A stretch of 64,000 nucleotides of DNA. It comes from Selaginella moellendorffii. Lineage: Eukaryota; Plantae; Lycopodiophyta. The stretch spans positions 372,001 through 436,000 of the forward strand of contig NW_003314366.1 in the NCBI RefSeq assembly GCF_000143415.4. The letters are read 5' to 3'. Position numbers and translations under genes: made by a program. Of this stretch, positions 3,839 through 42,551 are shown in pieces. Every line of letters starts with the position of its first letter. Position 1 is the stretch's first letter. The notes beneath the pieces are model-generated. The model was not told the DNA's origin and did not search any database. It saw only the letters and a list, made by a program, of their open reading frames with translations.

Positions 3839-6087
3839 TGTAAAGAACCAAGTCCCAAAGGTGTCGTAGGCTAAAGGATCCCCGAAAGCATGACCAAAAT
3901 GACAAAGAGTTCATCAGATGGGATCGAGTCAAAGATCGAATCCAAGACTGACTTTGAGACTGTAGCACACGTGGTTTTGACCCTTTATCCTATGGTGATT
4001 TACCATAGGATAACACCAAGAAGCGGAATCTAAACCCTCTTTGTGCCACGTGACAGTTGCCACGTGTCACATGCCACGTGTCCATAGGAACCCGAGGTTC
4101 AAGGCCTTGGGCCACTGAATGAAGGAACGGTGCCAAACTCCCAAGCGTGGAGCCAAGGAGTGATGGAACCGGACCACGGAGCAACTCCCGAGCATACAAC
4201 CCAAGGAGCGAAGGGACAGGAGCTCGAGGCGACTTGGAATAGTCTAGGAGCAACCAGCATCCCAATGCCAGGACCAGCATGCAAAACGGAGCCAAATGGA
4301 GTCTAGTGCTATTTCAGCATATCGGTGGCCTAACGTGAGAGTATGGGTACTCCACCAGCTAGCATGGAATGGAACTTGGGCTTAGACCCAAACCGGACGC
4401 AAAACAAGGACAGGCACGCAAGCAGGAGCTAGACTATGCCTCAAGTTGGTCGGCCATGCCCGACCGACCCACTATCCCTACTATACATTTGGAACCCCCC
4501 ATAGCCCTCCCGCCCCCCCCACCCCCTCCCTTAGTATCAGGAGTTAGTCTCTGGGACAAGCTCGAAACTTACTAAATATGGAATGTTTCTAGATTGCGAA
4601 TTTGGATACGGGACGAACACCATTGTGTTCAGGACGATTTCTACATTCCGTAAATATGCCAAATGAGCAAATCTGGACACTTTCCATAAATAGCATTTAG
4701 GACCAAAATGAGACTAACACAAAGGGCATGATAGCGAGGGTGTTTGGCAGACACGGTAGGCTATCATTTAGCGATATTGAGGGACCAAGCTCAATATCGC
4801 GGAGGTTCCCAACACTAGCAAGTGCAAGTCAACGAATGAGTTTCTCTAACCAGGTCAAATATGCTTGACTAAATAGACACTTAGGAATTCCTTCCTTATG
4901 CTCATTTGGTCAAGTGCACACGCGAGGACTAGTTTCTCAACTAGCTTAGGTGGAGATTGATAACGGGTCCAGCAATACCAACCTCCTGCCATCGTGGCAG
5001 TAAGGTAAGAGTGTCCGTAAGGACTGGCCAACAAGTAACTTTCGATACCTGAAGTCACATTCGCGATAGAGACCGAGTTTGAGATAGAGTCTGGGATCGA
5101 GTCCGAGGCCGAATCAGAGACCAAGTTCGAGATCGAGTTTGAGACAGAGTCCAAGATCCAAATCGGGTCCGAGACCGAGTCTGAAGTCGAGTCCGAGATC
5201 GGGTCTAAGATCGAGTCTGAGATCGAGTCCGAGACCGAGTCCGCAGTCAGGTCCAAGATCGAGTCCGAGATCGAATCCGAGACTAAGTCCAAATACTAAT
5301 ACGGGTCAAGGGGTGAAAGCCCAAAGCATGCGTCTCCCAGGGGGGGGGAGGGCTACAGGGGGTTCCAAAAGTATAGTAGGGATAGTGAGGTCCAGGAACC
5401 AGTCTTGAAGGAACTCTCCAGTAGTGCTTCCAAACTGACTTAAAGTTGAGACTGGGGCCGAGGGGCCTTGGGTGGGAGTGAGCATGGACTTAGGTGGTGC
5501 CGGAGGGGCCACCCAAGGAAGTGCTCAAGAGTAGCTCCCACTCTCGAAAGGGAAACCGACTGCGGTGCTCCCGGCTCATGTGGAGTGGTGCCCCACGTGA
5601 GTACCTTGTGGCTCATTGGTCCTCGCCCTTCCTAGGGGCTTGGGCCTTCTCTTTGGGATAGAAGAAGGGGGGTAGAGGTACCCATACCGGGCTGTTAAGC
5701 CACGGTGTTTTGCCCCGGTGTCCCGAAGCAAGTATTGCACCTAAGGCTTGGGATTTAAAGGGTCCTATGATCAAGCCTTGTTGTACCAAGGGATGTGAGG
5801 AACTTGGAGGCTTGGTGTGCTTGGCTGCTTGTGCCTGTGGGGAGTGTAGCTGAACCTTAAGTCCAGTCTAACCTGGGGAGGGGGATTGGGAGAGATTTGG
5901 GAATCTGTGGATGGATGGCTAACGCTCCATTGCTTGTGTAGTAAGTAGTTGAAACCAAGTAGGACCAAGTAGGAGTTGGTACAATAGGCGAGAACCTTGG
6001 CGAGGGGACTTAACAAAAGCTAAGGTAGTGTTGGTCGGACAGACGAGGTAAGCTGGCAAATTGGAAATGAAAAATTTGTGGCTTACA
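3839..6087 (+). mobile_element. Solo LTR of family B, interrupted by solo LTR C
   Basis: TGTAAAGAACC...GTGGCTTACA; 5-bp TSD CTTCC at 3834-3838 and 6088-6092; homologous to 9792-10868 and 24956-26340. Confidence 0.92.
3961..5068. mobile_element. Solo LTR family C
   Basis: TG...TA ends (probably a mutated CA); TSD GAGAC at 3956-3960 and 5069-5073; shares the CCAAAwGTATAGTAGGGATAG block with LTR B, on the minus strand. Confidence 0.8.
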
Positions 6088-7830: not shown

Positions 7831-7862
<32 letters not shown>

Positions 7863-9791: not shown

Positions 9792-10870
9792 AGCATGACC
9801 GAAATGATAAAGAGTTCATCAGATGGGACTGAGTTTGAGATCAAGTCCAAGACCGACTTTGAGGCCGAGTTCGAGACAGAGTCCGGGATTGAGTTCGAGG
9901 CCAATTCCAAGATCGAGTTTGAAACCGAGTTTGAGACCGAGTTTGAGACAAAGTCCGAGATCCAAGATTGGGTCTGAGACCGAGTCCGAGGTCCAGTCCG
10001 AGGTTGAGTTTGAGATCGGGTCCGAGGTCGAATCTGAGATCGAGTCCTAGACCGAGTCTGAGGTCGGGTCCGAGATCGAGTCTGAGATCGGGTCCAAGTA
10101 CTAATACAGGTCTGTGTCTCCTGGGGGATGGGGGGGGGGGGGTTATTGTAGGGGGTTCCAAAAGTATAGTAGGGATAGTGAGGTCTAGGAACCAGTCTTG
10201 AAGGAACTCTCTAATAGTGCTTCTCTAATAGAGGTTGAGACTGGGGCCGAGCAGCCTTGAGTGGGAGTGGGCATGGACTCGAGTGGTGTCAAATGGGCCA
10301 CCTAAGGAAGTGCTCAAGAACAACTCCCACTCCCAAAAGGGAAACCAACTACAGTGCTCTTGGCTTATGTAGAGTGGTGCCCAATTTGAGTACCTTGTAG
10401 CTCATTAGTCCTCACCCTTCTTAAGGGCTTGGGCCTTCCCTTTAGGATAAAAGTGGAGGAGTAGGGGTACCCATACTGGGCCATTAGGCCACGGTGTTTC
10501 TCCCCGGCATCCCGAAGCAAGTGTTGCACTTAAGGTTTGGGATTTAAAGGGTCCCATAATCAAATCTTGTTGTACCAAAGGGATGTTAGGAATTTTGAGG
10601 CTTAGTGTGCTTGGCTGCTTGTGTCTGCGGGGAGTGTAGCTAAACTTTAAGTTTAGTCTAACCCAGGGAGGGGGATTAAGAGAGATTTGGGAATTTGTGG
10701 ATGGATAGCTAATGCTCTGTTGCTCATATAGTGAGTAATTGAAACCAAGTAGGAGCTAATATAATAGGTGGGAACCATGGCAAGGAAACTTAACTAAGGC
10801 TAAGGAAGTGTTGGTCTAATAGATGAGGTAAGCTAGCAAAATTGGAAAGGAAAAATTTGTGGCTTACAAT

Positions 10871-10883
10871 TTGGTATCTAAGC
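10871..10883 (+). promoter_or_regulatory. Primer-binding site (tRNA-iMet type, degenerate) of element B
   Basis: TTGGTATCTAAGC next to the LTR end; plant iMet PBS consensus is TGGTATCAGAGC. Confidence 0.8.
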
Positions 10884-10927: not shown

Positions 10928-12100
10928 ATGGCAAAGGTAAGGCATAAATGAACCAAGGCAGAGACGAAACCTCCCCCAAAGCTAGAGCCTTTGGTCAAAC
11001 AAGAGGCTATAGATGAAAAATCCTTGTAGAAGGAGGACTCTAGTGAGGAAATTTTCAAATAAGAGTCTGGTGGTGAGGTTCGGTCATCCAAGGCTTGATT
11101 AGACGTTCTAGAAGGACAATTAGCATAGACCAATGCCCTGCTGGAGACTCTCGTATGCAAGCTAAAGCATGACAAGAAGCAGAAGAAAAAGCAAAAGACT
11201 GCAAATGCTAGAAGTGCAGAAGGTGCGGAACCTTTAGTAGGGACTGAGGCAGAACCAAATAAGATTGAACAGACCGAAGTGGAATCAATCCCTTAAGCAG
11301 TTCCCAAGTACAAACCAAAGCCCCCACTTATCTTCAAGGGAGTGAATGATTATAAAGTGGTGGAGGATTGGTTTTATGATATGGAGGACTACTCTCGATA
11401 GTTGCAGTTACCGAGCTCAAAGAAGGTCCCATGTGCAAAACCATACTTGGCAGATAATGCCAAGTCTTGGTGGAGAATGACAGAAGCCAACAAAGGACCG
11501 GTGGCCATTTGGGAAATGATGAAGGCAAGGATTCGTGTGACTTACGTTCCTCCGAATGCTACTCTACACCTAAGGGATGAGCTGAGTAGGCTGAAGTAGA
11601 TCATAACTATTGAAGAGTATGTGAATGGGTTTATGGCAAAGAGGATACTTGTCATAGATATAGGTGATATGGATGCATTCCATGCCTTCATATCAGACTT
11701 GCAAACCTGGGCTCATAGCGAGGTGATGCATTGGAATCCGACCAACTATAAGGAAGCATTAGATACAACTATCAAAGTGCATTTCAATGATAATTTGTGA
11801 AAGGGGAACACGATGGGGTTGGGGTCAACGTTTAGCAAAGGGGCCAAACCAAGGGGGACATATGGCAAAGGAAAATTCAAGAAGAGTTTTGCTAAGAATG
11901 AGTCCTCGGGGTTTTGGAAAGGCAAATTCGGTGGCTAGCAAGCAAGTATGTGGGGGAGTCAAACGAAAAGGGACAAACCCACATATAAGAACGTCAAATT
12001 TACTAGTAGCATAGGAAATAACATATGCTTCAACTGCGGTGAAATAGGACACTTTTCGATGGAATGTCCCTACCCAAAGAAGACCAAAGTCAATATGGCT
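10928..12100 (+). pseudogene. gag of element B
   Basis: ATG at 10928; frame broken by stops consistent with C>T decay; KPKPPLIFKG...EDWFYDME...YLADNAKSWW; CCHC knuckle CFNCGEIGHFSMECP at ~12026-12070. Confidence 0.85.
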
Positions 12101-12695
12101 ATTAAGTTGAGTGAAATTTAAACTGAGGTACGTGATCCAATCCCTAGCTCAAAGTTACTCATTACACGAACAACTTTAGTAGAGAGTTATTTGCGACATC
12201 TACTAGCCCTCCGAGGGAAGTTTAGAGGTAGCTTTGTTAAGATCCATATTGACATAGGTGTTTGATGAAAGTGTTTGAGAAACTAAAAGAACACAAGCTG
12301 TATGCTAAAGAGAGCAAATATAACTTTGCTCAACAAGAGGTAAAATTTCTTGGGATGTGGTGGGCAAGAACAAGCTCAAGGTGGACCTTGAGAATGTCCA
12401 AGCAATCTAGGAATGGGAGCGACCATCTAATGTACATGAGTTGAGGGCGTTTCTAGGGCTATGCAACTACTATCAAAAGTTTATCAAACACTATTCGAAA
12501 GTAACCTTGCCCTTAACGTACCAAACGAGTAAAGGGAAGATGGTATGGACAGCAGAATGCAAAACAGCATTTGTCCACCTTAAAGGGAAGTTAAGCAAAA
12601 CTCTTGTGTTGACATTACCAGACTTCAGTAAGGACTTTGAGGTAGAGATGGATGCTTTGGACTTTGTGTTGGGCACAATTTTGAAGCAAGACAAC

Positions 12696-14561
12696 TGTGA
12701 GACACAAATCCCTAAGCCCCAAAGTGGAGCCGAAAGGGTGCCACATGGTAGTGGCCAAAGTGAAAACCAAACGAGTGTAACATATTTAGACTAAAAGCTT
12801 CGACTTGAAAAGTCAAGAGTAGAAGTGGAACTCCCGATGGAGTGCTCAAGGAACAAGCATGAAGTAAGCAATAAGAGAGTCTCTAGAAAAGGGACACAAG
12901 AGGACTAACACATGACACATGGTGGAGTTCGAGATGGACCCGAGATAGGACCCGAGATGTACCTGAAATGGAGTCTGAGATGGAGTTCGAGATGGACCCG
13001 AGATGGACCTGAGATGGAGTCCGAGATGGAGTTTGAGATGGACCGCGATGAAATCCAAGATGGAGTTCGAGATGGAGTTTGAGATGGAGTCCGAGATGGA
13101 GTTCGAGATGGAGTCCGAGATAGGACCCGAGATGTACCTAAGATGGAGTCTGAGATGGAGTTCGAGATGGACCCGAGATGGACCTGAGATGGAGTCCGAG
13201 ATGGAGTTTGAGATGGACTGAGATGGAATTCAAGATGGAGTTTGAGCTGGACCCGAGATGGAGTCCGAAATGGACCNNNNNNNNNNNNNNNNNNNNNNNN
13301 NNNNNNNNNNNNNNNNNNNNNNNNNNNNNNNNNNNNNNNNNNNNNNNNNNNNNNNNNNNNNNNNNNNNNNNNNNNNAGATGGAGTTTGAGATGGACCCGA
13401 GATGGAGTTCGAGATGGACCGAGATGGAGTCCGAGATGGATCCGAGATGGAGTCCGAGATGGACCGAGATGGAGTCTGAGATGGAGTCCGAGATGGACCC
13501 AAGATGAAGTCTGAGATAGACCCAAGATAGAGTCCGAGTTGGAGTCCAAGATGGACCGAGATGGAGTCCGAGATGGAGTCCAAGATGGGCCCGAGATGGA
13601 GTTCGAGAAGGACCTAAGATGGAGTCCAAGGTCAAGACCGAGACCGAGACCAAGACCGAGACCGAGATTGGGACCGGGACTGAGACCGAGACCGAGGCCG
13701 AGGCCGAGACTGAGCCTGAGTTCAAGTCCAAGTCCGAGTTCGAGTCCGAGGGTGAAAGCCTAAAGTGTTTGTCTCCCAGACCCTAGTGAGCTCCAAAAGT
13801 ATAGTAGGGAGAGGACTACAATAGAGCCAGTTTGGCCAGGAATGGGTGGCACTACCTACTTCGATACCTGGCGTGGCTCAACGAAACCTTGCTCTAAGCC
13901 CATGACTAAAGCACCCAAAGGTGGAAGTTAGGGAGAGTACCTATGAGGTTCTCGTAGGGCCACGGTCTTTCGAAATATTGTCCCAAAGTCCTAGACTGTG
14001 GAAAGGAAGAGGAGTAACCCTTTAGTGTGGTGTCCAAGGATACAGTCACATGGTGAGGAAGTCCTAGATGACAGTGGGACTCGGTGGTCTGGCCTGTAGG
14101 GCTTGATCTAGTGGTAGTGTTGACGAACACGGCCATGTATAGAAAGGGACTTGGTAGGGATCGAAAAGGGATATTGGGGAAGGCTATTCCCCATGTCTGC
14201 AGGTATCCTAAGGATGCTAGGGAGTGGATCTGGGATGACTACTCATGAATGGATGGCCTAGTGTTTGAGAGACAGAACTATGATGTAGGTGATGTTATAT
14301 CATTGGTATGACAAAGGTGAATATACATGGCCTTAGCGTAACAGGCTGATATGTCAGTGTTACCTTTTGGTGTCAGTTATGGGACCGGACACGTGGAGCA
14401 CTTGGACTAAATGCAAGGGTTGAGTGGCAAGGATGCCATTCTCGGGGCTAGCCAGACCCAAGTCCAGAATAGGACTTATGGAGGTTGTGAGTAAGACTCC
14501 TCCAAGTGGTCTAAGGTGTGGTTAAGTGACTAAAGTAGAATGGAAAATTTAGTCGCTTACA
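12696..14561 (+). mobile_element. Solo LTR of family A (contains assembly gap)
   Basis: TGTGAGACACA...GTCGCTTACA; TSD ACAAC at 12691-12695 and 14562-14566. Confidence 0.9.
13277..13376. other. Assembly gap (100 N) within the LTR satellite
   Basis: Run of N. Confidence 1.
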
Positions 14562-15585
14562 ACAACCATCTAATAGCGTTCTTCTCGAAAACGTTTGACA
14601 AGGCTTAGCAAAAATGGCCTACCCACGAGAAGAAATTATTTGTGGTGGTCAACGTGCTCAAGGAGTGGTGACACTACCTTGGAACGCACTTCAAAGTTTA
14701 CATGCATAATCTGGCAATGAAACACTTCTTATCGCAGCCTGACCTAAGAGGGAAACAAGGTCGGTGGGCTAATGCATTGGCTGAGTTTGATTGTGAGATT
14801 CTGTATAAGTCTGGGAAGAGTAACATCGTGGCAAATAAGTCGAAAGGCAAATTTGAAATTGACGATATCTAACACAATAGCAACCTTTTGGGATGATGTG
14901 CAGACAACATATAAGAATGATGGTCTAGCACAAGAAGTATTGCTAAGGAATCAAGAGGCGCAAGATGCTCACCAGATAGGTGAGCTACCAATGGAAGAGA
15001 AAATAAGTTATGCAAAATGCAATAGACTCGAATATTATAAACAGATGAGGGTGTATACTCCAGAAGGGGAACTAAGGAAGGTAGCCTTAAAAGAGTGTTA
15101 TGATGGACCTCTTGCAGGACACGGCGGAGTGCCCAAGTTAATGGGTTTACTCAAAAGGAAGTATCACTGGCTAGATATGGCTAAAGACGTTTAAGACTAT
15201 ATAAAGACACGTCCAACATGTCAGTAGGTCAAAGCCGTGACTAAAGCTAGTGGAGGCTTGTTACAAAGCATTTCAATTCCAGATCAACCGTGGAAATGTC
15301 TTACGATGGACTTCATCACGGGACTCTTCCAAAGTGAGGGGTTTGATGTGATATTCATGGTGGTGGACCAGTTTTTGAAGATGGCACATTTCATACCCAC
15401 TACAATAGAAGTGCATGCAGAAGGCATGGCAAAGCTGTTCTTTAAACAAGTGGTTCAAGTGCGGGGAAGGCCAGAAAAGATTATCTCAGATCAAGATATA
15501 ATCTTCACTAATAGATTCTGGAGAGCTCTCCTGGAACAGTATTGCACCAAGTTGAAATTTAGTATAGCCTATCACCCACAAACAG

Positions 15586-15632
15586 GTATTGGGTATTAAG
15601 TCAAGTTTGATGGTAATAGCACTTCTTGATAG
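15586..15632 (+). other. 47-nt GT-AG intron-like insert in integrase motif HPQT/DGQTER
   Basis: ACAG|GTATTG...TTGATAG|ATGGA; removal restores T-D-G-(Q>stop)-T-E-R. Confidence 0.7.
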
Positions 15633-15769
15633 ATGGATAAACGGAAAGGGTGAATAGGTAGCTGAAGGATTATCTGCGATGCTATGTCTCGGGAGACCAG
15701 ACCAATTGGGTAAGTCATTTAGGACTTACAAAAATGTGCTATAACAACTCACCACATTCAAGTATTGGG

Positions 15770-18700
15770 TGTAAGCAACTAAATTTTCCATTCTACTTTA
15801 GTCACATAACCACACCTCCGACCACTTGGAGGAGTCTCATTCACAACCTCCATAAGTCCAATTCAGGACTTGGGACTTGCTGGCCCCAAAAATGGCATCC
15901 ATGCCACTCAACATTTGCACTTGGTCCAAGTGCTCCATGTGTCCGATCCCATGACCGACACTCAAAGGTACCACCGACATGGCAGCTTGTCACGCTAAGG
16001 CCATGCCCAATCACCTTTGCCACACTGGTAGTCCAATACCACATGCATCCCAATCTTGGCTCTCCAAGACTAGGCAAACCATCCGTGAGTGGTCATCTCA
16101 GATCCACTCCTTAGCATCCTTAGGATGCCCACCGACAAGGGGAATAGCCTTCCCCAATATCCCTCTATCAGTCCCCACTAAGTCCCTTTCTGCCCCTAGC
16201 CGTGTTTGCCAACACTACCACTGGATCGAGGCCCACATGCCCGACCACTAAGTCCCACGGTCCTCTGGGACTTCCTCACCATACGATTGTGTCTTTAGTC
16301 ACAACCCCAAAGGACTGCTCCTCTTCCTTTCCACAGTCTGGGCCTTTGGGGACAACATTTCGGAACACCATGGTCTTACGCGAGCCACCTGGGTACTCTC
16401 CCCGCCTTCCACCCTTGGGTGCTCTAGCCATGGGCTTAGAGCGAGGTTCCGTTGAGCCACGCCTGGTATCTAAGTAGGTAGTGCCACCCACACTTGGACT
16501 GGGAGCATCGGCCAGTTGATCTCCCGGGGGAACTAGAGTCGGCTCTTGAACACTTCACCAAGCTACCCCGCTTGTTGGTCTGTGTTCACTCTAGTATTGG
16601 ACTTCCCAGTGGTCAGTTCATCACCCAACACTGGGTCTGGCCTTCCTGGGCCAAACTGGCCTTTCCTGGCCAAACTGGCTCCACTGCAGTCCTCCCCCCT
16701 ACTATACTTTTGGAGCTCACCAAACCCCCTGAGTCTGGGAGACGAACACTTTGGGCTTTCACCCTCTCATACTCGAACTCGGACTCGGACTCGGACTCAG
16801 GCTCAGTCTCGGCCTCTGCCTCGGTCTCGGTCTCGGTCTCGGTCCCGGTCCTGGTCTCGGTCTCGGTCTTGGTCCCGGTCCCGGTCTCGGTCTCGGTCTC
16901 GGTCCCGGTCCCGGTCCCGGTCTCGGTCTCGGTCTCGGTCCCGGTCTCGGTCTCGATCTCGGACTCCATCTCGGGTCCTTCTTGGACTCCATCTCGGATT
17001 CCATCCCGGGTCCATCTCGGACTCCATCTCGGACTCCGTCTCGGTCCATCTCGGACTCCATCTCGGACTCCACTTCAGGCTCCACTTCAGACTCCACCTC
17101 GGACTCCACCTCGGAGTCCACCTCGGAGTCCACCTCGGACTCCACCTCGGACTCCACCTCGGACTCCACCTCGGACTCCAGCTCAGACTCCACCTCAGAC
17201 TCCACCTCGGACTCCATCTCGGACTTCATCTTGGTCCATCTCGAACTCCATCTCAGACACTTCCACGTGTCATGTGTTGGTCCTTTTGGGTCCCTTTTTG
17301 GAGCCTCGCTTATTGCTCGCTTCATGCTCATTCCTTGAGCACTCCATTGGGAGTTCCACTCTTGCTCTCGACCTTTTAAGTCGGAGCCTTTTAGTCCAAA
17401 TGTGTTACGCTCGTTTGGCTTTTGCTTCGGCCACTACCACGTGGCACCCTTTTGGCTCCACTTTGGGGCTTAGGGGTTTGTGTCTCACAACTCCACCACC
17501 CATAGACGAAGTTCAATGTCCTCATTGAACGGTAAACCCGTTTATAAAGTAACACCCACAAGTATTACCATTTCCTTCCTTGGCACCTAGCCAATATTTG
17601 TCTATGGTTTGACCCCAAAGGCTCACCATGCCTTGTCCATCCTCTAAGGGGCATAGTCTCTCCAACATAGAGACTCATTCGGACACCTAGGGTGGTTTGC
17701 TCCCTTTTATAGGTTTAGTTCTCGCTAAACCCGTTTGAGATACTTTCTCTAACTCAATTCCACTACTCATTCTCGAGTAGTCCCAACTTCTATTGACATA
17801 ACCAATTCACCTTGGAACTTTTAATTTTGACTTCTCGAAGTCAATTTCTTTGGTGTCTTTGACACCTTTCACTGCACATATTATGCAACTTCACTTCCCA
17901 TCCTAGGAAGCTCCCCACTTGAGGGCGCCATCGTCCTCCTTTCTATTTTATGCCACTTTTGGCACCAAGTTCTAGCCATTGTAATTTGTGCTAGAGCTAC
18001 CCACAGTGTAAGCAACCAAAGGGAACGACTTGAGAGACGATCCATGGGGTTCAAATATAGAGGGAAAGGGCCCATGAATAAGAGTGCACCCCCTTTTCCA
18101 ATCAGTTAAGGGTCTTGGGATATTTGGGGTTAAGCGTCCTTGGGTTTGAATAGTACTGGGCCCGGTGACCTCCCGGGAAGTCCAAACTTAGGAGTTTACA
18201 TTTGGTATCAGAGCGGTCTCGGGTCCGACTCTGTTGGTTGGCTAAGGGAATCACACCACATGTTGATTGACATCTGGCTGGTCCAGTTTGTTCCCGCTGG
18301 GCTCGACCCGAGGGGTAGGGTGTCAAGAGAGCGGGGCTCTCGGGAGAGCTGCGGCTCTCAGCTTCCGTTCACAAGGGCGTGAACTTGCAGGGAAGCGTGG
18401 TGGATTGTAAGCAACCAAAGGGAATGACTTGAGAGACGATCCATAGGGTTCAAATATAGAAGGAAAGGGCCCATGAATAAGAGTGCATCCCCTTTTCCAA
18501 TCGGTTAAGGGTCTTGGGATATTTGGGGTTAAGCGTCCTTGGGTTTGAATAGTACTGGGCTGGGTGACCTCCCGGGAAGTCCAAACTTAGGAGTTTACAC
18601 ACGGCCCTATCCTTTGGCTACTTCGCCATTCCCTCCCTTGGAGCTTTCACCTTTGCCAACTTGGAGCATTTGGGAATCTTTCCTTGGAAGTCCACTTCCT

Positions 18701-21700
18701 TTCCCGCAATCCGTTAGCATAAAACACATTTGTGTTCCTTGGCTAACTTTGCCATTTGGATTCCTTCCCATGATTCCCATGGCTCTTTTCTTGGCCACTA
18801 GTCTTTTGCTCCTATCCTTGATTGTTGCACCCAGCAACATAGGATCGCTACCTCCATTTTTTAGGTTTCCTTTCGGTTCCATAGCAAACACTTTGCTTTG
18901 CCAAGTCCAGAGGGTGTTCACCCCTAGTACGTCTCTTTAACATTTTCTATCGTGGGCTCTATCCACGGCCCAACTTTTTGAGGCCCTCCCTTGGATCTCT
19001 TATAGAGACTACTTTCCTTGGACTTACTATGCCATAGCATTGATATAGCTCATTTCCCTTAGGTGTTCTTCTCACTTGGTCACCTCAACCAAGCCACACC
19101 TTTATGAATAATTCAAATCAACACTTTGAACTAGGAATCATATTCCTTAACCCAAACAAAGACTTTGTCCTTGTTTAGCCACAAGATCACCTAGTGATCT
19201 CATAATAGGCTTATCAATAGGAACTAAGTCTTCCAGACCCTTCTAAGTTGTTGACTATGACCCCAGGGGCATCCCCCACACTTGGCGGTGCGCCCAAGCC
19301 AGCCCTTCCGGCCAAGGATCCATAGCAACTGAGACTTGGGTGTCCCCATCTCATTCACCACGTCCTTGGTGCCCTTTGCACCAAAGTGTTTAAGTTAGAT
19401 ATGCTGAGCTTTCACTCTAAGAAATCTAACCGTGCATCACGACTCCGAGGCATCCCTCGCTTGGCGGTGTGCCCAAACTAGTCTCCTCACTGAGAGTCCA
19501 TGACCACCGAAATATGAGTGTCCTCATATTCCAAACCATCACCACGCCCTAGTGATTTGGGACTCGAACCCAAGCACTAGAGGGTTGGGACTCGAACCCA
19601 ACCTCCGTATATGCATCTACGGACGGCATCACCCAGGATGCCTGGCATGACTCCCCACGCCGGTGCACCAACTTATACTTAAAGCGTGGTATAGATCATA
19701 GCTTAGGAACCTAGTTCCCCCACACTGCCAAGTCCTCTCACTTGACAAGTCCATGATCATGCATGGACTCTTCCATGCTTGGCCCCATGGCCCACCTTTT
19801 TGAAGTAATCACATTCAACTAGGGTATTTGTTCCCCCGACTTGCCAATCTCGCTTGGCAAGTCCTCCGACCACTGTAACATGGTTCCTGCATAAGCGTGA
19901 AAGTCCTTGACCATTGACTTTCGTTCAAAGCCCTCTCTTTGAACACTCGGGAACTACTTCCCTAACCTTGATAGTGTTGCCTCATGGCAAGCTTCAAGAC
20001 CACGCTTCTGCTGCGCCACTCTGATTTCGCGTGTTCCATGAACCATTTACACTTGGTTTTTCTAGGTACTAAGCTACCTAAAATCATCTTTGGGAACCTT
20101 GAAGGAACTCTGTCCCTTAGCTTGCTAAGGCCTCTCTTTTCGCAAGCTTTATAGTTGCCATATAGTCTAACATGGACAATTCCATATTTTAGACTCTCCA
20201 TGGCATCACAGTTGCTAACAACAACATCCTCGAGCACCCTCTTGATTCTCCACTCCCAACTTGCATAACCACCGTTGGATATGCCCTTCGATTTCTATGG
20301 TTCAGTTCCATCCCAATACTACTTGCCTTTTGGCCCCATATGTTTCCTTTGGTTATTCTCCTCCAAACTAGGCGGATAGCTTTGCACATTTTGCTATGCC
20401 TTAGCAAGTATGCTTAGGGATGAACCTGCTCGATAGCCTAGGGAGTGGTTCCTTAATCTTGGGCATGCTCACTTTATAATCCCACACACCAGGGTTAACG
20501 TTGCTGCTTATGGGCCTTTACATGCCCATCATTAGCTTTGCCAAAATTCCATTTTTAGCTTTATCCAATTTGGGTTGACAGTTTTCTCCTGTCTCCGCAA
20601 CCTTGGATATTTGGATAGCACATTTTATCCATCATTCACTAGGGACTTAGTCCCTTGGGCTTTATCTATTGCCCTCGCGACATCAAACACCACCTCCCGG
20701 TGTCCTAGAGTGTTTTGGTATCCCAAATGATGGCTTATTTGACAATGAACATTCCCTTTTATGACATTGACTTACTATATCGCAACATAAGCAATTTATC
20801 CCTCGTAAGGGTATATCTAACTTCTTTATGCCATTAAGAAGTCTTGGGTAGCTACCTTCTACTAGTTTGACCAATTATCTTGCACTTTTTGCTTAGTTGC
20901 CTCATAGCTGTCAAGTCCTACAACTCATTGCTTGGTGCTTCCACACCTCCATCATTATCTGGGTCACCACACTCCAACCACATGCCTTCCAGCTTAGGCT
21001 ATGCCATTCCCGTTTTTATTGGGATTCCCTTGGCAAGGGGTTCTTAAGAACCCACCAACATAACCTCAAGGTATCACACTTTGGCACATTTGGTGTCTCC
21101 ACACCATCGGCCCCACGAGCCTATCCTTATGACACTACTTACTAGTATCTAGGTCTTTGCCTAGGACAATATAGTTGTTCCTCATGCTAACTATCCATTA
21201 GCACCACACCATAGAGTTTGCACCCAACTCTAGGTCAAAGTTGCTTTCTTCTGGGAATATCTTTCCCACAACTTTAGTATTGCACATTCTGCCCTCAATG
21301 AGATATCTCTTGTTCTCATACTTGGATCTTATGATCCTCCCCATACCTCATGGGGCAGCATACACCTCAGTCTAAATGCTTCAACCAATCCCTTATGACC
21401 ATTCCTTGACCCCACTTGAGTCATCCAGCATTTTTGGACCTTGCTAATCCAACAACCTACGAGGTCTCAATCTTAGAGGTGCCAACTCACTGGAATACAA
21501 CTTCTTGTATTCATGTCCTACTCATAAGGACAATCTTTGCAAGTGTTACTCTAACACTTGATGATTTTCTTGGGGCTAACATTTGCCCCTTAGGACCACT
21601 TGTCCATGTGATGAGAATACCAACTCATCCTCTAAGTACACCCCCACCTCCTTGGGTTGTTCTAGCATTTAGAAGAGGTAGCTTCGGCTACCATTTCAAG

Positions 21701-23836
21701 GACTTGTGTCCTTTTCTGTATTTGACCTCCCGCGGTCATTACTTCTAGTCTCACATTTATGAGCACCCACCTCAACTATATGAGGATAATCTTGTGACTC
21801 CTTTATTGTTTTGGAGTCTTTATCTTTCCCGTGATCCTAACTATAGTTGTTTACCACAACTACATTAGCCAGTTTGCAAAGTCAAATGCTCATCTGGATC
21901 ACATCCTCAACTCTATGAGGAAAACTTTATACTGTTCCCAAGATCCCAAAGTCGTTCCCTTACTGGCCCCTTTTTTATCCACCACATCGCGCCCAAGTTC
22001 ACGCATGAACTTGAGTGGAGAGCCATGTCCTCTCGACATGCTACTTCTCAACGATAGGCCCACTCCTAGGACCTTCCGATGCTAATATCAATGGTGATAT
22101 ACTTGAGCACCAATAAAAGTCAGACTAAGGAACAACTCCGATACCAAATTGTAAGCGACTAAATTTTCCATTCTACTTTAGTCACTTAACCACACCTCCG
22201 ACCACTTGGAGGAGTCTCATTCACAACCTCCATAAGTCCAATTCAGGACTTGGGACTTGCTAGCCCCGAGAATGGCATCCATGCCATTCAACATTTGCAC
22301 TTGGTCCAAGTGCTCCACGTGTCCAATCCCATGACCGACACTCAAAGGTACCACCGACATGGTAGCTTGTCACGCTAAGGCCATGCCCAATCACCTTTGC
22401 CACACTGGTAGTCCAATACCACATGCATCCCAGTCTTGGCTCTCCAAGACTAGGCAAACCATCCGTGAGTGGTCATCTCAAATCCACTCCTTAGCATCCT
22501 TAGGATGCCCACCGACAAGGGGAATAGCCTTCCCCAATATCCCTCTGTCAGTCCCCACTAAGTCCCTTTCTGCCCCTGGCCATGTTTGCCAACACTACCA
22601 CTGGATCGAGGCCCACAGGCCCGACCACTAAGTCCCACGGTCCTCTGGGACTTCCTCACCATACGATTGTGTCTTTGGTCACTACCCCAAAGGACTGCTC
22701 CTCTTCCTTTCCACAGTCTGGGCCTTTGGGACAACATTTCGGAACACCGTGGCCTTATGCGAGCCACCTGGGTACTCTCCCTGCCTTCCGCCCTTGGGTG
22801 CTCTAGCCATGGGCTTAGAGCGAGGTTCCGTTGAGCCACGCCTGGTATCCAAGTAGGTAGTGCCACCCACACTTGGACTAGGAGCATCAGCCAGTCGATC
22901 TCCTGGGGGAACTAGAGCCGGCTCTTGAACACTTCACCAAGCTACCCCGCTTGTCGGTCTGTATTCACTCTAGTCTTGGACTTCCCAGTGGTCAGTTCAT
23001 CACCCAACACTGGGTCTGGCCTTCCTGGGCCAAACTGGCCTTTCCTGGCCAAACTGGCTCCACTGCAGTCCTCCCCCCTACTATACTTTTGGAGCTCACC
23101 AAACCCCCCAGGGTCTGGGAGACGAACGCTTTGGGCTTTCACCCTCTCAGACTCGAACTCGGACTCGGACTTGGACTCGGGCTCAGTCTCGGCCTCCGCC
23201 TCGGTCTCGGTCCCGGTCCCGGTCTCGGTCTCGGTCTCGGTCCCAGTCTCGGTCTCGGTCTCGGTCTCGATCCCGGTCTCGGTCTTGACCTTGGACTCCA
23301 TCTCGGGTCCTCCATCTCGGATTCCATCCCGGGTCCATCTCGGACTCCATCTCGGACTCCATCTCGGACTCCATCTCGGTCCATCTCGGACTCTATCTCA
23401 GACTCCACTTTGGACTCCATCTCGGACTCCAGCTCAGATTCCAGCTCGGACTCCATCTCGGACTCCATCTCGGACTCCACCTCGGACTCCACCTCGGACT
23501 CCATCTCGGACTCCACCTCGAACTCCATCTCGGACTCCACCTCAGACTCCACCTCGGACTCCATCTCGGACTTCATCTTGGTCCATCTCGGACTCCATCT
23601 CGGACACTTCCACGTGTCATGTGTTGGTCCTTTTGGGTCCCTTTTTGGAGCTTCGCTTATTACTCGCTTCATGCTCATTCCTTGAGCACTCCATTGGGAG
23701 TTCCACTCTTGCTCTCGACCTTTCAAGTCGGAGCCTTTTAATCCAAACGTGTTACGCTCATTTGGCTTTTGCTTCGGCCACTACCACGTGGCACCCTTGT
23801 GGCTCCACTTTGGGGCTTAGGGATTTGTGTCTGACA
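15770..23836 (-). mobile_element. Full-length family-A element, apparently non-autonomous (LARD-like); LTRs 22150-23836 (5') and 15770-17489 (3')
   Basis: TSD TTGGG/TCGGG; PBS revcomp (ctccgataccaaat) at 22136-22149; PPT revcomp at 17490; ~4 kb internal region with no recognisable gag/pol ORF. Confidence 0.88.
18007..18599 (+). mobile_element. Cassandra-type TRIM (194-bp LTRs with a 5S rRNA-derived segment)
   Basis: LTRs 18007-18200 and 18406-18599; PBS TGGTATCAGAGC; PPT GGGAAGCGTGGTGGAT; TSD CACAG/CACGG; empty site visible at ~9060; LTR carries GTTAAGCGTCCTTGGG...TAGTACTGGGCTGGGTGACCTCCCGGGAAGTCC (5S A-box/IE/C-box). Confidence 0.92.
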
Positions 23837-24500
23837 TCGGGGTGAGTCTATGGGAAGTCATCAATGGGTGAGTTATTGAAGGTCCTATGGAACTCGGCAT
23901 GGCCGAGTATCATGAAGAGTTACCTACTGTAGAAGCATTCACGACAGAAAGACTCAACATTTAGAATCTAGTGAGGGATTCCTTGGAATAGACTCAATAA
24001 AGGCAAACTAAGTACACAAACTAGAAGCGCCAGGATGTAGAGTTCTAACTTGGGGAGAAAGTGTGGTTGAACACCAAGAACCTAAGGCTACCAAGTGGGA
24101 TCAACCATAAGTTGACCCAAAGGTAAAAATGCATGTATTCCTAGAAATGAATTGATCATGAGTTCCTTAAGCAGGTTTGCAGGGCCTTACGAGATTGAGG
24201 CACGAATCAGTAAAGTGGCTTACTGCCTTGGACTTCCTCGAGAGATGGGGAAGATGCACCCAGTGTTTTATATGAATTTACTCAAGTTGTATTTTGAGGA
24301 TCTACTTCACAAGGACCAAATAAAACCTTTACCTGAGGTTATCCAAGGGAAAGAGGAATACGAAGTCAAGGCCATCTTCAATGTGTGCAAGAGCAAACAA
24401 CAAGGATGCAAAGTGAGGGAGTTCCATGTAAAGTGAAAAGAATTTCCACACTGCAAAGCAACATGGGAACCGGAAGAGAACCTAACAAACGTGGGACCTA
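23837..24500 (+). pseudogene. pol of element B, part 2 (integrase C-terminus, GPY/F module, chromodomain)
   Basis: GEKVWLNTKNLRL, RFAGPYEI, MHPVFYMNLLK, EEYEVKAI...EFHVK*KEFP...ATWEPEENL. Confidence 0.88.
24123..24174 (+). other. 52-nt GT-AG intron-like insert in the integrase GPY/F module
   Basis: CAAAG|GTAAAA...TTAAGCAG|GTTTGCAGGGCCTTAC; removal gives KLTQRFAGPY. Confidence 0.72.
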
Positions 24501-25255
24501 GTGGAGGAATTTTTGCAAGGAAGAACTCTATGTACTTATGTAAAGTTCAATTAAAGTATCAAATTGTGAAGTTGAGTAATGGCATATGTTGGGACCTGAA
24601 GGTGCACCGAATGTAAACTAATTAGCATGAGTTAACTAGGTTGACCAGGCGTAGGGAACTACTCCTGATTCCCCGTGGGGATATTGAATTCGTAAACATA
24701 TTCTACGGAGGTTGGGTTTGAGTCCCAACCCCTAGTAAAGCAAGGCTAGGTTCAAGTCCCAACCCCATACTAGGGCATGGTAAGGTGAGGGGTATAGGGA
24801 CACATATATTCTGTTGCCATGGGCTCTTGGTTGGGGAGGCTAACTTAGGCACACCACTAAGTGGAGGAATGCCCTCGGAAACATAAGCAACAAGTCATAG
24901 GATTAGAAAGAAACATTTGATGTGGGCATTGAACTTCTTCTATGGGTGGTGGAGTTGTAAAAAACCAATTCCCCAAGGTGTCGTAGGCTAAAAGATCCCT
25001 GAAAGCATGACCAAAATGATAAAGAGTTCATTGGATGGGACCAAGTCTGAGATCGAGTCCAAAACTGACTCTGAGACCGAGTTCAAGACAAAGTCCAGGA
25101 TCGAGTCCAAGGCCGACTTCGAAACCAAGTTTGAGACTGAGTTCGAGACAGAATCTGAGATTTGAGATTGGGTCCGAGATCGAGTCTGAGGTCAAGTTGG
25201 AAATTAGGTCCGAGGTTGAGTCCAAGATCGAGTCCGAGACCGAGTCCAAGGTCGG

Positions 25256-26050
25256 TGTAAGCAACCAAAGGGAACGACTCGAGAGACGATCCATGGGGTT
25301 CAAATATAGAGGGAAAGGGCCCATGAACAAGAGTGCACCCCCTTTTCCAATCGGTTAAGGGTCTTGGGATAGTTGGAGTTAAGCGTCCTTGGGTTTGAAT
25401 AGTACTGGGCTGGGTGACCTCCCAGGAAGTCCAAACTCAGGAGCTTACATTTGGTATCAGAGGGGTCTCGGGTCCGACTCTGTTGGTTGGCTAGGGGAAT
25501 CACACCACATGTTGATTGACATCTGGCTGGTCCAGTTTGCTCCCACTGGGCTCGACCCAAGGGGTAGGGTGTCAGGAGAGCGAGGCTCTCGGGAGAGTTG
25601 CGGCTCTCAGCTTCCGTTCACGAGGGCGTGAACTTGCAGGGAAGCGTGGTGGATGGTATCAGAGGGGTCTCGGGTCCGACTCTGTTGGTTGGCTAGGGGA
25701 ATCACACCACATGTTGATTGACATCTGGCTGGTCTAGTTTGCTCCCACTGGGCTCGACCCAAGGGGTAGGGTGTCAGGAGAGCAAGGCTCTCGGGAGAGT
25801 TGCGGCTCTCAGCTTCCGTTCACGAGGGCGTGAACTTGCAGGGAAGCGTGGTGGATTGTAAGCAACCAAAGGGAACGACTCGAGAGACGATCCATGGGGT
25901 TCAAATATAGAGGGAAAGGGCCCATGAACAAGAGTGCACCCCCTTTTCCAATCGGTTAAGGGTCTTGGGATAGTTGGAGTTAAGCGTCTTTGGGTTTGAA
26001 TAGTACTGGGCTGGGTGACCTCCCAGGAAGTCTAAACTCAGGAGCTTACA
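25256..26050 (+). mobile_element. Cassandra-type TRIM with tandemly duplicated internal domain
   Basis: LTRs 25256-25449 and 25857-26050; TSD GTCGG on both sides; internal unit occurs twice (25450-25653, 25654-25856); 5S-derived segment in the LTRs. Confidence 0.92.
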
Positions 26051-26681
26051 GTCGGGTCTGAAATCGAGTCTGAGATCAAGTCTAAGACCAAGTCTGAGTA
26101 CTAATACAGGTCAAGGGGTGAAAGCCCAAAGCATGCGTCTCCCAGAGGGGGGCTGTAAGGGTTCCAAAAGTATAATAGGGATAGATGAGATTCAGGAACT
26201 AATCTTGAACGAACTCTCCAATGGTGCTTTCAAATTGACTTGAGGTTGAAATTGGGACTAAGGGGCCTTGGGTGGGAGTGAGTATCGACTCAGGTGGTGC
26301 CAAATGGGCCACCCAAGGAAGTGCTCAAAAGCAACTCCCTTGTTCGTTTCAAATATTGTACTCAAGCATTTGTAAATTTTGATTTTGACAATCCCAAACA
26401 TTTTTATGTAAATTTTAATTAACTAAGTTTTACAATTCTTTTACACCTACTTTTTTCCTCACCAAGAGATGTTGCATAGAGCACATGACTATAATGTCCA
26501 TTGCTTTGATTATAACTTATAGTCAACCACTAGAAATAAAGCATCCCTGAGCAATTATGTCAAATAATTTTTGTTTATTTGCTCAGACATTATCCAAGTC
26601 CCGCAGAAGCGTTTTACTCGACTAGCATGTCTTTATCTTGAGAACTGATAGGAAGTTTTTATCAAAGAATGCATCGTTCAC

Positions 26682-28267
26682 TCACTTGCGATCCAGCTTC
26701 ATAGCTTTGAGATCTTCCAGCCATCCCTGGAGGCCACAAAACGACTTCCCATTCTCTTTGTCCATAGCTTTCCTCGCAAGGATCTTCAGGTTCTGCACTC
26801 TCTTCTTGATCTTCTTCCCCTCCTCGCTATCCATCACCTTTTTTATGCCGGCCTCGATCTCTCCTCGCTCGATCAATCCCTGCACCACTGTCTTGGAGAA
26901 TCTAACCCCGATCTTCCAGTCCTCCACTATAAACTTACAGTTGGTGTTTTGCTCGCCCCCGTAAGGCCACCCCAGCATTGGAATGCCATTAGCGATGCTC
27001 TCCTGGACGGAATTCCATCCGCAGTGCGTGAGAAACGCTCCCATGGAGGGATGGGCGAGAACTCTCAGCTGTGGCGCCCAGGAAACGATGAATCCCTGGT
27101 TCTTGGTCCTCTCGCAAAACCCATTGTAAGATTCGTTCGAGTGACCACCCACCACCAGCTCAGGTCGAATCACCCACAAGAATGGCTTCTTCGATGCCTC
27201 GAGAGCTCCCGCGAGCTCCTCGAACTGCTCCACGCTCAGCACCGCGATGCTGCCAAACGAGATGTAGAGCACTGATCCAGGCTCCTGCACATCCATCCAG
27301 TGAAGGCAATCCTCGTTCTCGGGTCGAAGCACGACATTCTTCCTGGAATCGTCGAACAAGAACAGTGGCCCCGCGGGGATGAATCGAGGCCCGAGCTCGC
27401 TGGCCATGAAATCGAAGGTGGGCGCCTCGAGGTCGTAGAAGGAATTGACGAGGACCCAGCGCGCGCGCTTCACGACGGGGGAGCGCTTGATGCAAATCTC
27501 CTTCAACACCTCCTGGCCCTCCGAGGCCAGCAGGCAATCGGGCACATCGGCCAGGCGGAGGGGCTTGACTCCTCGGACGTAATCGATGATCACGGCATTG
27601 GCCTCGTCGGGGGAAGCTTTCCCTGCGTCAACAGAGGAGGTTAATTCCAAAGGGAAGAACAGGGGAAATTTGATGGTCCAAGGGAAGAACAGGGTAAATA
27701 CAAGGGAAGAATAGGGGAAACGCTTAATTCCAAGGGAAGAACAGGGGAAGAACGGAGATTCGCACCTCTGCTAGGAAAGATGTGATCTTTCTCCAGAAGC
27801 TCTGGAATGTGGTACTCAAAGCTCGTCCATGCCGCGTTTCCCGACCAAAGAATGATCCTGGGGATTCCAAACACAGCCGCCACATCCTGGGTCCAATCGC
27901 AGATGTAATCCGAGACGATACAGCTGACCGGATCGCCCTCCTCGCCGAGCTTGCGGATCAAATCCTCGAGGCCGCCGGGGAGCTCTCGCGCGGCTGCCGT
28001 GAACCAGTCCCCCACATTTCCTGCGACGTTGGCGTCGACTCCTCGCGGGAGCTTCCACGAGAATGGGATGGAATGGAGGCGCAGAGCTTCCAGCCCCGCC
28101 GGCGCCACCCAGTGCTTGACGAACTCGTCGTGGAGGCTGTCGATATTGACCCAGGAGATTGTGAAGCTTGGATCTTGGGCGATGAACTTACAGAGATGGA
28201 TCATTGGGGAGATATGGCCTTGCGCGGGCGCTGGAAACGCCAAGACATGGACCTTGCGAGAAGCCAT
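26682..28267 (-). CDS. UDP-glycosyltransferase (family 1), copy 1; exons 28267-27766 and 27622-26682
   Basis: PAQGHISP, CIVSD, PSPG box WAPQLRVLAHPSMGAFLTHCGWNS...WPYGGEQ; GT-AG intron 27623-27765 keeps frame; alternative ATG at 28288. Confidence 0.92.
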
Positions 28268-29096
28268 GGTTTCCTTGGCAGGGTTCATCGGTATTTATTA
28301 GAATGGTTTTCTTGGCGGGGAAGGCAACGGATGTTTACACAAGTTGATTTCTCGACAAAGAGAGATTAGCATAAGCGTTGTGAGAGGCAATTCTGCTCTA
28401 GAACGAGACTCACATTGACCCAAGTTGCAATTCATTACAGCTCCTGAATTTGAACAAGCAATGATCCTATGGATAGCTGCCGCATGAATCTTGAGAAGGT
28501 GGCAAAAATCTGTCCCTACACCTGGCGGCTGGGAAGCTTCCGGCCTTTGAGAATATGGTAAGAGCATTTAACATTGGAGCAATCAGATTCATGAGTGCTG
28601 CTCTTGTCCACAAAATGGCCGTGGCTAAGTCCAGCCTAAAATAAGTGCATGATTATCGATCAAGAGAACGCTCGTTGTCTTCTCTTTGGCTGGAAATGAT
28701 GCCTGGTCTGGGCAAATGCAAGTTAGCAAAGATTCCGAGCAACAATACTGTACTCAAGCATTTGTAGAGTTTTTTTTTGTAAACATCGAAAATCCCAAAC
28801 GTTTTCATGTAAGTTTTAATTAACTAAGTCTTACAGTTCTTTTGCATCTGCTTTTTTCCTCACCGAGAAATGTTACATAGAGCACATAACTAATGTCCAT
28901 TTGCTTTGATTGTAACTTATGGTCGGTCACTAGCAATAGAGCATTCTTGAACAATTTTGTCAAGTAATCTTTGTTTGTTTGCTCAGCCATTTCCAACATT
29001 ATCCAAATCCCACGCACAAGCGTTTTACTTGACTAGCATGTGTTTATCTTCAGAACTGATAGATAGAAAGTTCTTATCAAAGAATGCATCGTTCAC

Positions 29097-30756
29097 TCAC
29101 TTGCGATCCAGCTTCATAGCTTTGAGATCTTCCAGCCATCCCTGGAGGCCACAAAACGACTTCCCATTCTCTTTGTCCATAGCTTTCCTCGCAAGGATCT
29201 TCAAGTTCTCCACTCTCTCCTTCATCTTCTTCCCCTCCTCGCTATCCATCACCTTTCTTATGCCGTCCTCGATCTCTCCTCGCTCGATCAATCCCTGCAC
29301 CACTGTCTTGGAGAATCTAACCCCGATCTTCCAGTCCTCCACTATAAACTTACAGTTGGTGTTTTGCTCACCCCCGTAAGGCCACCCCAGCATTGGAATG
29401 CCATTTGCGATGCTCTCCTGGATGGAATTCCATCCGCAGTGCGTGAGAAACGCTCCCATGGAGGGATGGGCGAGAACTCGAAGCTGTGGCGCCCAGGAAA
29501 CGATGAATCCCTGGTTCTTGGTCCTCTCGCAAAACCGATTGTAAGATTCGTTCGAGTGACCACCCACCACCAGCTCAGGTCGAATCACCCACAAGAATGG
29601 CTTCTTCGATGCCTCGAGAGCTCCCGCGAGCTCCTCGAATTGCTCCTCGCTCAGCACCGCGATGCTGCCAAATGAGATGTAGAGAACAGATCCACGCTCC
29701 TGCGCATCCATCCAGTGAAGGCAATCCTCGTTCTCGGGTCGAAGCACCACATTCTTCCTGGAATCGTCGAGCAAGAACAGTGGCCCCGCGGGGATGAATC
29801 GAGGCCCGAGCTCGCTGGCCATGAAATCAAAACTGGGCGCCTCTAGGTCGTAGAAGGAATTGACGAGGACCCAGCGCGCGCGCTTCACGACGAAGGAGCG
29901 CTTGATAGAAATCTCCTTCCACACCTCGTCGCCCTGAAGGTACGTGGGCACATCGGCCAGGCGGAGCGGCTTGACTCCTCGGACGTAATCGATGATCACA
30001 GAATTTGCCTCGTCCGCAGAAGCTCTTCCTGCGCACGAATCGATCAGTCCAAGGGAAGAACAGGGGATGTTAATTCCAAAGAGAAGAGGGCCAAAGGGAA
30101 GAACAGGGGAAATGTGATGGTATTCCAAGGAAAGAACAGGGTAATTCCAGGGAAAACAATGGAAGAACAGGGGAAACTTTTAATTCCAAGGGAAGAATAG
30201 GGAAAACGTTTAATTCCAAGGGAAGAACAGGGAAAGTTCATGATCAAAATAGGCGATTCGTACCTCTGCTAGGAAATATGTGATCCTTCTCCAGAAGCTC
30301 TGGAATGTGGTACTCCAAGCTCGTCCATGCCGCGGTGCCCGGCCAAAGAATGACCCTGGGGATGCCAAACACATCCGCCACATCCTGGGTCCAATCGCAG
30401 AAGTAATCCGAGACGATACAGCTGACCGGATCGCCCTCCTCGCCGAGCTTGCGGATCAAATCCTCGAGGCCGCCGGGGAGCTCTCGCGCAGCTGCCGCGA
30501 ACCAGTCCCCCAGATTTCGCACGACGTGGGCGTCGACTCCTCGCGGGACCTTCCACGAGAATGGGATGGAATGGAGGCGTATCTCTTCCAGCGCCGCCCA
30601 GTGCTTGATGAATTCGTCGTGGAGGCTGTCGATATTGACCACGGAGATTGTGAAGCTTGGATCTTGAGCGATGAACTTGCAGAGATGGATCATTGGGGAG
30701 ATATGGCCTTGGGCGGCCACTGGAACCGCCAAGACATGGACCTTGGTAGAAGCCAT
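29097..30756 (-). CDS. UDP-glycosyltransferase, copy 2; exons 30756-30264 and 30028-29097
   Basis: Same motifs; GT-AG intron 30029-30263. Confidence 0.92.
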
Positions 30757-31671
30757 GATTTTTTTTTGGCAAGGAAAGATTTGTGCGTAAACTGTTTAGA
30801 CTACTAGCCGTCTCTGGAAAAGATTCCTTGGTAGTTTAGTGTTTTGGCCAATTTCTGGAGATTAAGATCCTGATGGTGGTTCCAAGGATTATTATCCCCT
30901 CGCTGGGATTAAGTTTCACAATTCCAAAAGCTAAGGGACTGTAGAGTTTGGATCGATATTTGGGGCAATGATCCCTTGCATGCATGGACAACTGCCACAT
31001 GAATCTTGATCTCTATTAAGTTGGGAAAAATCTAGATATTTCCGTGCATGGCGGCTGGGACGAGCAAAAGAGAGAAGAAAAACATGGTAAGAGCATGTAA
31101 CATTAAGTAAGTGCTCTAAGACATCTCTCTAATCCCGGATTCTTAAAGAAATGCATGACTACAGCGCGCTAATGGTGTCTTCCCTTCGGCCGCAAATGAT
31201 GCCTCGTCTGGGCAAATGCAACTTCGCAAAGATTCCGAGCAACAATGTTGCGCTGAAGTTTGTAAGCATCGACTTTAATATTGGTTCCAAACGTTTCATG
31301 TAGGTTCTAACGAAGCTCTTTCGCATCTAGTCAACTACCCCTATCTGGCAAATGCTAAGAGTCTATCAGAGGGCATTGTGGTGATCCCAGGGGTTCCGCT
31401 AAAGATATCCCCAGTTGGTAGCGGCCATTCGCGAGGAATTCCATCTCCTCGCGGTAATCCCTGCGGATTTCTCAACTCGGAGTCGGATCGAGCAGCCAGG
31501 ATCGCCGCAGGGATGTTGGCACCTCCTGCGCTCTGCGTCTGGCTTTCCAATGCTCATGCGACATCTCTCAGTGAGGAAGAAACCGGCATGGATCAAAGAA
31601 GTTGGCACATTAATTATCTTGAGAACTGGTACAAAGTTCTTAAAGTTCTCTTCAAAGAATAGATCTTTCAC

Positions 31672-36289: not shown

Positions 36290-36318
36290 CTTTGCTGCTT
36301 TTCTCCTAGGGCTTTTTC

Positions 36319-42262: not shown

Positions 42263-42405
42263 TGCCACTGGAAGTCATGTGGATAAAATCATCAGAATCT
42301 ATCTTTATGTTTTACATATAAAATTCATAATTGAATATTAAATTATTAAGTATAAAACTAATAAAAATTTAATGATGGACCTGGGTAAGGTTTTATTTTG
42401 CCTTG

Positions 42406-42551
<146 letters not shown>

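Follow-up and report, generated by a model that had tools for sequence, protein, structure and literature searches.

Two intron-like inserts lie family-wide within the integrase of a Ty3/gypsy chromovirus of Selaginella moellendorffii

The integrase of a Ty3/gypsy chromovirus in Selaginella moellendorffii is interrupted by two short inserts that are likely both true spliceosomal introns. The two inserts are real at the DNA level and present throughout the family, and in the literature that we searched we found no earlier report of this layout. The copy that drew attention to them, which we call element B, lies in a window of 64,000 nucleotides (contig NW_003314366.1, positions 372,001 to 436,000 of the forward strand; all coordinates are those of the window). 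We consider it probable that this family carries two family-wide integrase introns, is copied from unspliced RNA, and depends on a minority of spliced transcripts for its full integrase.

Element B has the gene order of a Ty3/gypsy chromovirus, gag, protease (PR), reverse transcriptase (RT), RNase H (RH) and integrase (INT), between LTRs and with a primer binding site and a polypurine tract, PR and most of RT being deleted in this copy. All of its own parts are on the forward strand. The 5' LTR (9796..10868, 1073 nt) is missing its first ~50 nt, ends in CTTACA, contains a 13-nt poly-G at 10130 and is 79% identical to the 5069-6090 part of a solo LTR of the same family. Three nucleotides past its end is the primer binding site (10872..10883, TGGTATC), whose motif is of the tRNA-Met type. 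A decayed gag with a CCHC knuckle and the start of the protease follow at 10928..12259 (PF03732, PF00098; 11 stops in 442 codons), and just after 12259 comes the PR-RT deletion, ~1.1 kb as estimated from homologues. The end of RT and the start of RNase H, placed by tblastn, occupy 12260..12695 (PF17919) and abut a nested solo LTR of family C on the reverse strand (12696..14561), which is bounded by the target site duplication (TSD) ACAAC/ACAAC and contains a 100-N assembly gap (13277-13376) within a 12-nt repeat array. The last part of exon 1 (14567..15585; PF17917, PF17921, PF00665) encodes RNase H, the integrase zinc finger and the core with its two catalytic Asp residues, ending in HPQT. 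Insert 1 (15586..15632) separates it from the first part of exon 2 (15633..15769), in which alignment to homologues places the catalytic Glu of the D,D(35)E triad. A nested 8-kb element on the reverse strand, element C (15770..23836; LTRs 92.6% identical, TSD TTGGG/TCGGG), is not part of family B. Beyond it, domain and homologue matches locate the second part of exon 2 (23842..24122), which ends in KLTQR. Exon 2 totals 418 nt (~139 codons), and in 60 homologues the corresponding motifs lie a median of 135 aa apart. Insert 2 (24123..24174) is followed by exon 3 (24175..24554), which encodes the GPY/F (SH3_Tf2-1) region and a C-terminal chromodomain, both above cutoff (PF24626, E 1.4e-10; PF00385, E 1.5e-7). 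A polypurine-tract-like primer common to elements B and C (24940..24955) and a truncated 3' LTR (24956..26340), with a TRIM-like element inside it at 25256-26050 (TSD GTCGG), complete the element. A reading of the sequence alone had given the feature as one span from 15586 to 24174; about 8 kb of those 8.6 kb belong to the separate nested element.

This copy of the element is dead: every part in which stops were counted has in-frame ones, and there are frameshifts, the PR-RT deletion and two nested insertions. It has no TSD of its own because both outer ends are damaged. Nevertheless, the solo LTR of the family (3839..6087; 1136 nt once its nested insertion is subtracted) begins with TG and ends with CA (TGT..ACA) and is flanked by a perfect 5-bp TSD, CTTCC, which indicates that the family was inserted by integrase. 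Integrase-independent insertion conflicts with that duplication.

Both inserts have the features of spliceosomal (U2) introns: GT..AG ends, the length and AT content of host introns, and exact restoration of the frame upon removal. Insert 1 is 47 nt long (CAG|GT..AG|AT) and insert 2 is 52 nt long (AAG|GT..CAG|GT), neither a multiple of 3, and the coordinates, lengths, ends and frame-breaking that the sequence-only reading had reported were all confirmed. Upon read-through, a stop is reached four codons into a retained insert 1 and at the junction of a retained insert 2. Insert 2 has AGGT at both junctions (AAG|GTAAAA..GCAG|GT) and a better splice context than insert 1. The AT content of both is 66-67%. 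By comparison, the eight introns of the host ENT gene in the window range from 43 to 65 nt with 60-65% AT; the first is 43 nt long, in agreement with the earlier claim of host-like size. Two random fillers would both end in GT..AG, sliding allowed, with a probability of ~2e-4. An origin by tandem duplication of the flanking exon was unsupported (P=0.38 and 0.73), and the inserts have no similarity beyond chance to each other or to other DNA in the window. In the contig alignment, no further intron-sized insert is listed in 14563-15585.

Homologues define what the uninterrupted protein should look like. In the alignment to protein P0059, residue 799 falls at 15584 and residue 800 at 15632, such that zero residues are lost at insert 1. 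Within a set of 210 homologues, [DN]GxxE directly follows the HPxT motif in 141 of the 160 that span site 1, and K[LFM]xxx directly precedes [FWY]xGP[FYW] in 60 of the 62 that span site 2. The claim that removal restores frame and motifs exactly therefore stands for the residues, but not for the motif in this copy, which reads DG*TE rather than DGQTE. The Glu after DGQ[ST] is the one that completes the well-established D,D(35)E catalytic triad; its spacing from the second Asp is 35 residues in 124/127 homologues and also in Ty3, and is 35 in the window once insert 1 is removed. Insert 1 lies between the second catalytic Asp and this Glu and splits the Glu from both Asp residues, and unspliced RNA would therefore encode a truncated integrase. 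A retained insert 2 ends translation ahead of the GPY/F region and chromodomain. The window also holds element D (1170-3470), a distant gypsy pol ended by a nested LTR near 3470, which reads HPQSDGQTE and a degenerate KLSSSYCRLW at the two sites. It lacks both inserts, as had been claimed, being contiguous at both sites, but at 36% identity to B in integrase it represents a distant family and not a sister.

We examined the family at large in two DNA runs of one sample, X1 and X2, with contigs aligned at 80% likeness; the coded organism A of the sequencing runs is assumed to be S. moellendorffii, and an ENT exon in the window is 99% identical to an S. moellendorffii protein, while exact protein matching returned 0 of 4 host ORFs. 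The copy number is high, with thousands of contigs at both sites. At site 1 (14563-15769), 5815 contigs of X1 and 5790 of X2 aligned, and depth in the insert bin was comparable to that alongside in both X1 (328k vs 542k and 462k) and X2 (25k vs 27k and 24k), where summed depth does not equal copy number. Contigs ~82% alike span insert 1 with 0-1 gaps, and one variant inside it is common to 77 and 71 contigs, the variants listed at site 1 being 40 of 356. A 47-nt skip is absent among the 15 of 27 joints listed there. At site 2 (23970-24329), 2071 X1 contigs run through insert 2 with an insert-bin depth of 370k-700k, and a 52-nt skip is absent from the complete list of three joints. The splice dinucleotides of insert 2 are not among the 40 of 45 variants listed at ≥20%. 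Contigs lose rare variants, and intronless genomic copies are at most rare. In total, both inserts belong to the family and are not unique to this copy.

Outside of this sample, close relatives were not found. The best identity to element B in protein searches was at most 56%, and the 150 best representatives did not exceed 48%; these searches yielded no close family member and no annotated spliced model of the family. No viral contig matched a degenerate pattern designed to detect introns at this integrase site in other elements. The pattern's eight matches in metagenome contigs lack integrase similarity and are attributed to chance. Among viral and prokaryote contigs, a related-locus search found no relatives.

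The family is very probably SM1-Galahad, a Galadriel-clade chromovirus of S. moellendorffii described by Novikov et al. 2012 (PMC3350952), as matched by sizes and description rather than by sequence comparison; the sequence-only reading had not made this identification. SM1-Galahad has hundreds of copies, none intact, and its reported features can be set beside those of element B: LTRs of 1076/1146 bp (1073/1136 nt in B), a poly-G of 11-25 nt (13 nt), a Met primer binding site, which fits along with the TG..CA ends, and a length of 7.5 kb (estimated ~7.5 kb). It was described with a 1295-aa ORF lacking the chromodomain, followed by two short ORFs, one of 316 bp and a final one of 309 bp that contains a chromodomain whose chromo box carries substitutions (PMC3350952). 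In element B, the first ORF to the stop in insert 1 comes to ~1300 aa (1268-1359, estimated from homologue spacing), and the downstream ORFs are 321 and 310 nt, the second ORF thus being 5 nt off. An ORF ending instead at insert 2 would gain ~139 aa. The introns account for the published three-ORF layout of SM1-Galahad. Its relative SM2-Galahad, also with hundreds of copies, has one intact, uninterrupted ORF of 1577 aa (PMC3350952). Because the SM2-Galahad ORF is uninterrupted and the homologues are contiguous, the most natural reading is that the SM1 lineage gained the introns, and because the published 1295-aa frame is open, there is little room for introns in the PR-RT part. The strings 'intron' and 'splic' occur 0 times in the main text of PMC3350952, and no other paper naming SM1-Galahad was found in the open-licence literature.

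The window is rich in other mobile elements and in genes. Element C has LTRs of ~1.7 kb and a Met primer binding site at 22140, and it shares its polypurine tract and LTR-end motif with B. Similarity to pol is absent from it by tblastn, and it is likely a non-autonomous partner of Galahad-type families. More copies of its LTR lie at 1-1173, 6736-8514 and 12696-14561. Two TRIM-like elements (18007-18599 and 25256-26050) have LTRs of ~193 nt, Met primer binding sites and 5-bp TSDs, the latter with three LTRs in tandem. Downstream are three tandem UDP-glycosyltransferase copies, 87-91% identical (26350-33200), and an 898-aa PPR-E-DYW open frame (33593-36289); PPR-E-DYW proteins are typically organelle RNA-editing factors. 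From their translations, we take 36300-38950 to hold an intron-rich gene resembling IMPACT on the forward strand and a PEBP/FT-like gene on the reverse. An AT-rich stretch (40000-44000, 26-30% GC), within which segments of 230-590 nt are duplicated at 72-90% identity, possibly represents old non-coding transposon remains. Further along are a 756-aa leucine-rich-repeat receptor-like frame (44910-47180) and a decayed partial duplicate (48884-49157, 64%) of a TPR gene at 55803-56192.

Evidence from RNA differs between the two sites. At site 1, two reads of RNA run X4 aligned, and one of them covers 15540-15583 and 15631-15727 with an empty insert bin. By bin fractions its skip is exactly 47 nt, which equals the GT-AG intron once the boundaries slide across the AG common to both ends; the skip is deduced from bin depths and not from a listed joint, and the read could come from an intronless DNA copy. 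Intron 1 is skipped in 1/1 spanning RNA read, and run X5 has 0 reads at site 1. At site 2, seven records from X4, X7 and X8 aligned (X7 and X8 being RNA by our guess), and all five that reach insert 2 are unspliced. Two of these five, a read of RNA run X4 and a contig of X8, which belong to different studies, leave the reference at 24142 inside insert 2 and probably derive from one transcribed rearranged copy. The unspliced site-2 records may be DNA or genomic RNA, and retained reads are expected if unspliced RNA is the genome. The search for junction reads that the sequence-only reading had proposed thus gave one RNA read that skips insert 1 exactly and none for insert 2, where 0/5 records are spliced.

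Variation among copies suggests that the exons beyond the inserts are still translated. In exons 2-3, 10 of 12 segregating sites are third codon positions when read in the spliced frame (P=5e-4), as do all three in exon 3. By contrast, only 8 of the 23 sites where the dead copy differs from most copies are third positions (Fisher P=0.012 vs segregating sites). Segregating sites are those where the other letter is below 50%, or where there are two other letters, with three sites inside insert 2 excluded; the test is one of small numbers, draws on 40 of 45 variants and uses a threshold picked after inspection of the table, and two X7 contigs show the variants at 10 of the 12 sites. Because the divergent, variant-bearing contigs also enter insert 2, this bias probably arose after insert 2 was gained.

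These observations fit a model in which unspliced RNA would encode Gag-PR-RT-RH with a truncated integrase and would be packaged as genome, which would keep the introns. Splicing of intron 1 alone would yield an integrase core that lacks its GPY/F and chromodomain tail, and splicing of both introns would yield the full chromo-integrase. Weak splicing could then keep integrase below Gag within a single fused gag-pol frame. The sequence-only reading had proposed an unspliced genome and a spliced integrase mRNA. Unspliced RNA is indeed the likely copying template, because the genomic copies keep their inserts. That integrase comes only from spliced mRNA is a weaker part of the proposal, as insert 2 has no spliced record and SM2-Galahad could supply integrase in trans, and the splicing-controlled switch that it offered is likewise conjectural. 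Spliced RNA must be poorly packaged or copied, since otherwise intronless copies would have taken over. Nothing supports the other suggestion of the sequence-only reading, host-gene mimicry. A more specific version of the model is possible, though we hold it tentatively: an autonomous element with two gained host-type introns, in which two-step splicing sets whether no integrase, a chromodomain-less one or the full protein is made, while spliced RNA is kept from reverse transcription. If this were true, splicing would control both how much and where the element integrates.

The chief rival, which we judge unlikely though the strongest of the alternatives, is that the family is integrase-defective, its inserts being lesions that are incidentally spliced, and that integrase is supplied in trans, most plausibly from the intronless SM2-Galahad. 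The intact SM2-Galahad ORF in a family of hundreds of copies, set beside SM1-Galahad with no intact copy in the published description, speaks for such a supply, as does the missing spliced record for insert 2. The parasitism of BARE2 on BARE1 offers a precedent, and the non-coding element C has the polypurine tract and LTR ends of B, such that trans mobilisation probably occurs in this genome. Lesions would not be expected to take the form of two independent, host-intron-sized GT..AG inserts with zero residues lost (the ~2e-4 chance above), however, and the third-position bias in exons beyond the retained stop and the exactly spliced read at intron 1 also weigh against this view. The splicing model and trans supply by SM2-Galahad are compatible with each other. 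Another reading, which we regard as improbable, is that only insert 1 works as an intron, insert 2 being mostly retained, such that integrase lacks the chromodomain, whose exon would be decaying or seldom in use. This would match the contrast between one spliced read of one at site 1 and none of five at site 2 and the published chromo box substitutions (PMC3350952); it sits poorly with the exon-3 segregating sites, all at third positions, and with the better splice context of insert 2, whose unspliced records need not be mRNA. Amplification at the DNA level of an intron-bearing, host-like copy, by segmental duplication or carriage on a DNA transposon, is very improbable. It would need no special packaging for introns to be kept, and element B shows no TSD, its ends being damaged; yet the family's solo LTR has TG..CA ends and a perfect 5-bp duplication, the primer binding site and polypurine tract are present, and there are hundreds of LTR-bounded copies if the family is SM1-Galahad. 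That the inserts are filler DNA private to one dead copy, a reading that the age and heavy damage of this copy would suit, is refuted by their presence in the family at large and has next to no probability.

A close known system is Ogre, a Ty3/gypsy element of the non-chromovirus Tat lineage whose intron is spliced from a subset of transcripts, releasing the downstream enzymes (PMC6317226, PMC3735527, PMC12786077). Element B likely works in an analogous way, with an unspliced genome and a spliced enzyme mRNA. Ogre has one intron of ~274 bp between gag-PR and RT-RH-INT, gating RT, RH and INT together, whereas the two ~50 nt introns of element B are inside integrase and would gate integrase and chromodomain only. 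Element B is not itself an Ogre, as its chromodomain and the position of its inserts within INT rule out. In the Ty1/copia elements BARE1 and EVADE, splicing to a short Gag sets protein ratios, and the packaged RNA of BARE1 is a separate unspliced pool, apart from translated RNA (PMC3735527, PMC5580714, PMC12786077). Their logic is the opposite: the full ORF belongs to the unspliced RNA and is cut short by a stop that splicing creates, whereas in element B retention creates the stop. In the single-ORF Tf1, as reviewed, integrase is kept scarce by degradation. Introns survive retrotransposition in Penelope-like elements (PMC8557442) as in family B, but those are non-LTR elements without a DDE integrase. 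We rejected a Ginger-type DNA transposon or a domesticated integrase as the identity of element B, given its gag, RH, LTRs and many copies. Ginger elements carry introns. Like element B, GingerRoot/Ginger elements (PMC6839031) have a gypsy-type integrase and occur in Selaginella, but they are DNA transposons that have no gag, RT or LTRs, and GingerRoot lacks the chromodomain; element B contains every one of these parts.

According to a 2025 review, introns are generally absent from plant LTR elements, with Ogre and EVADE named as exceptions; splicing in BARE1, CRR and Bagy2 is also on record. No description of an intron inside a gypsy integrase was found in the open-licence literature, and none appears in the consulted parts of PMC2864245, PMC5718144, PMC13148404, PMC7730604 or bioRxiv 2024.04.02.587720.

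Reverse transcription normally removes introns, which a review presents as the classic proof of an RNA intermediate. An intron-keeping, high-copy chromovirus would be a clean natural test of the separation between packaged and translated RNA in an LTR element, and would offer datable intron gains inside a retroelement. The finding also makes clear why no intact copy was reported for a major family in a model lycophyte, and it serves as a warning that ORF-based pipelines will call such intron-bearing families dead.
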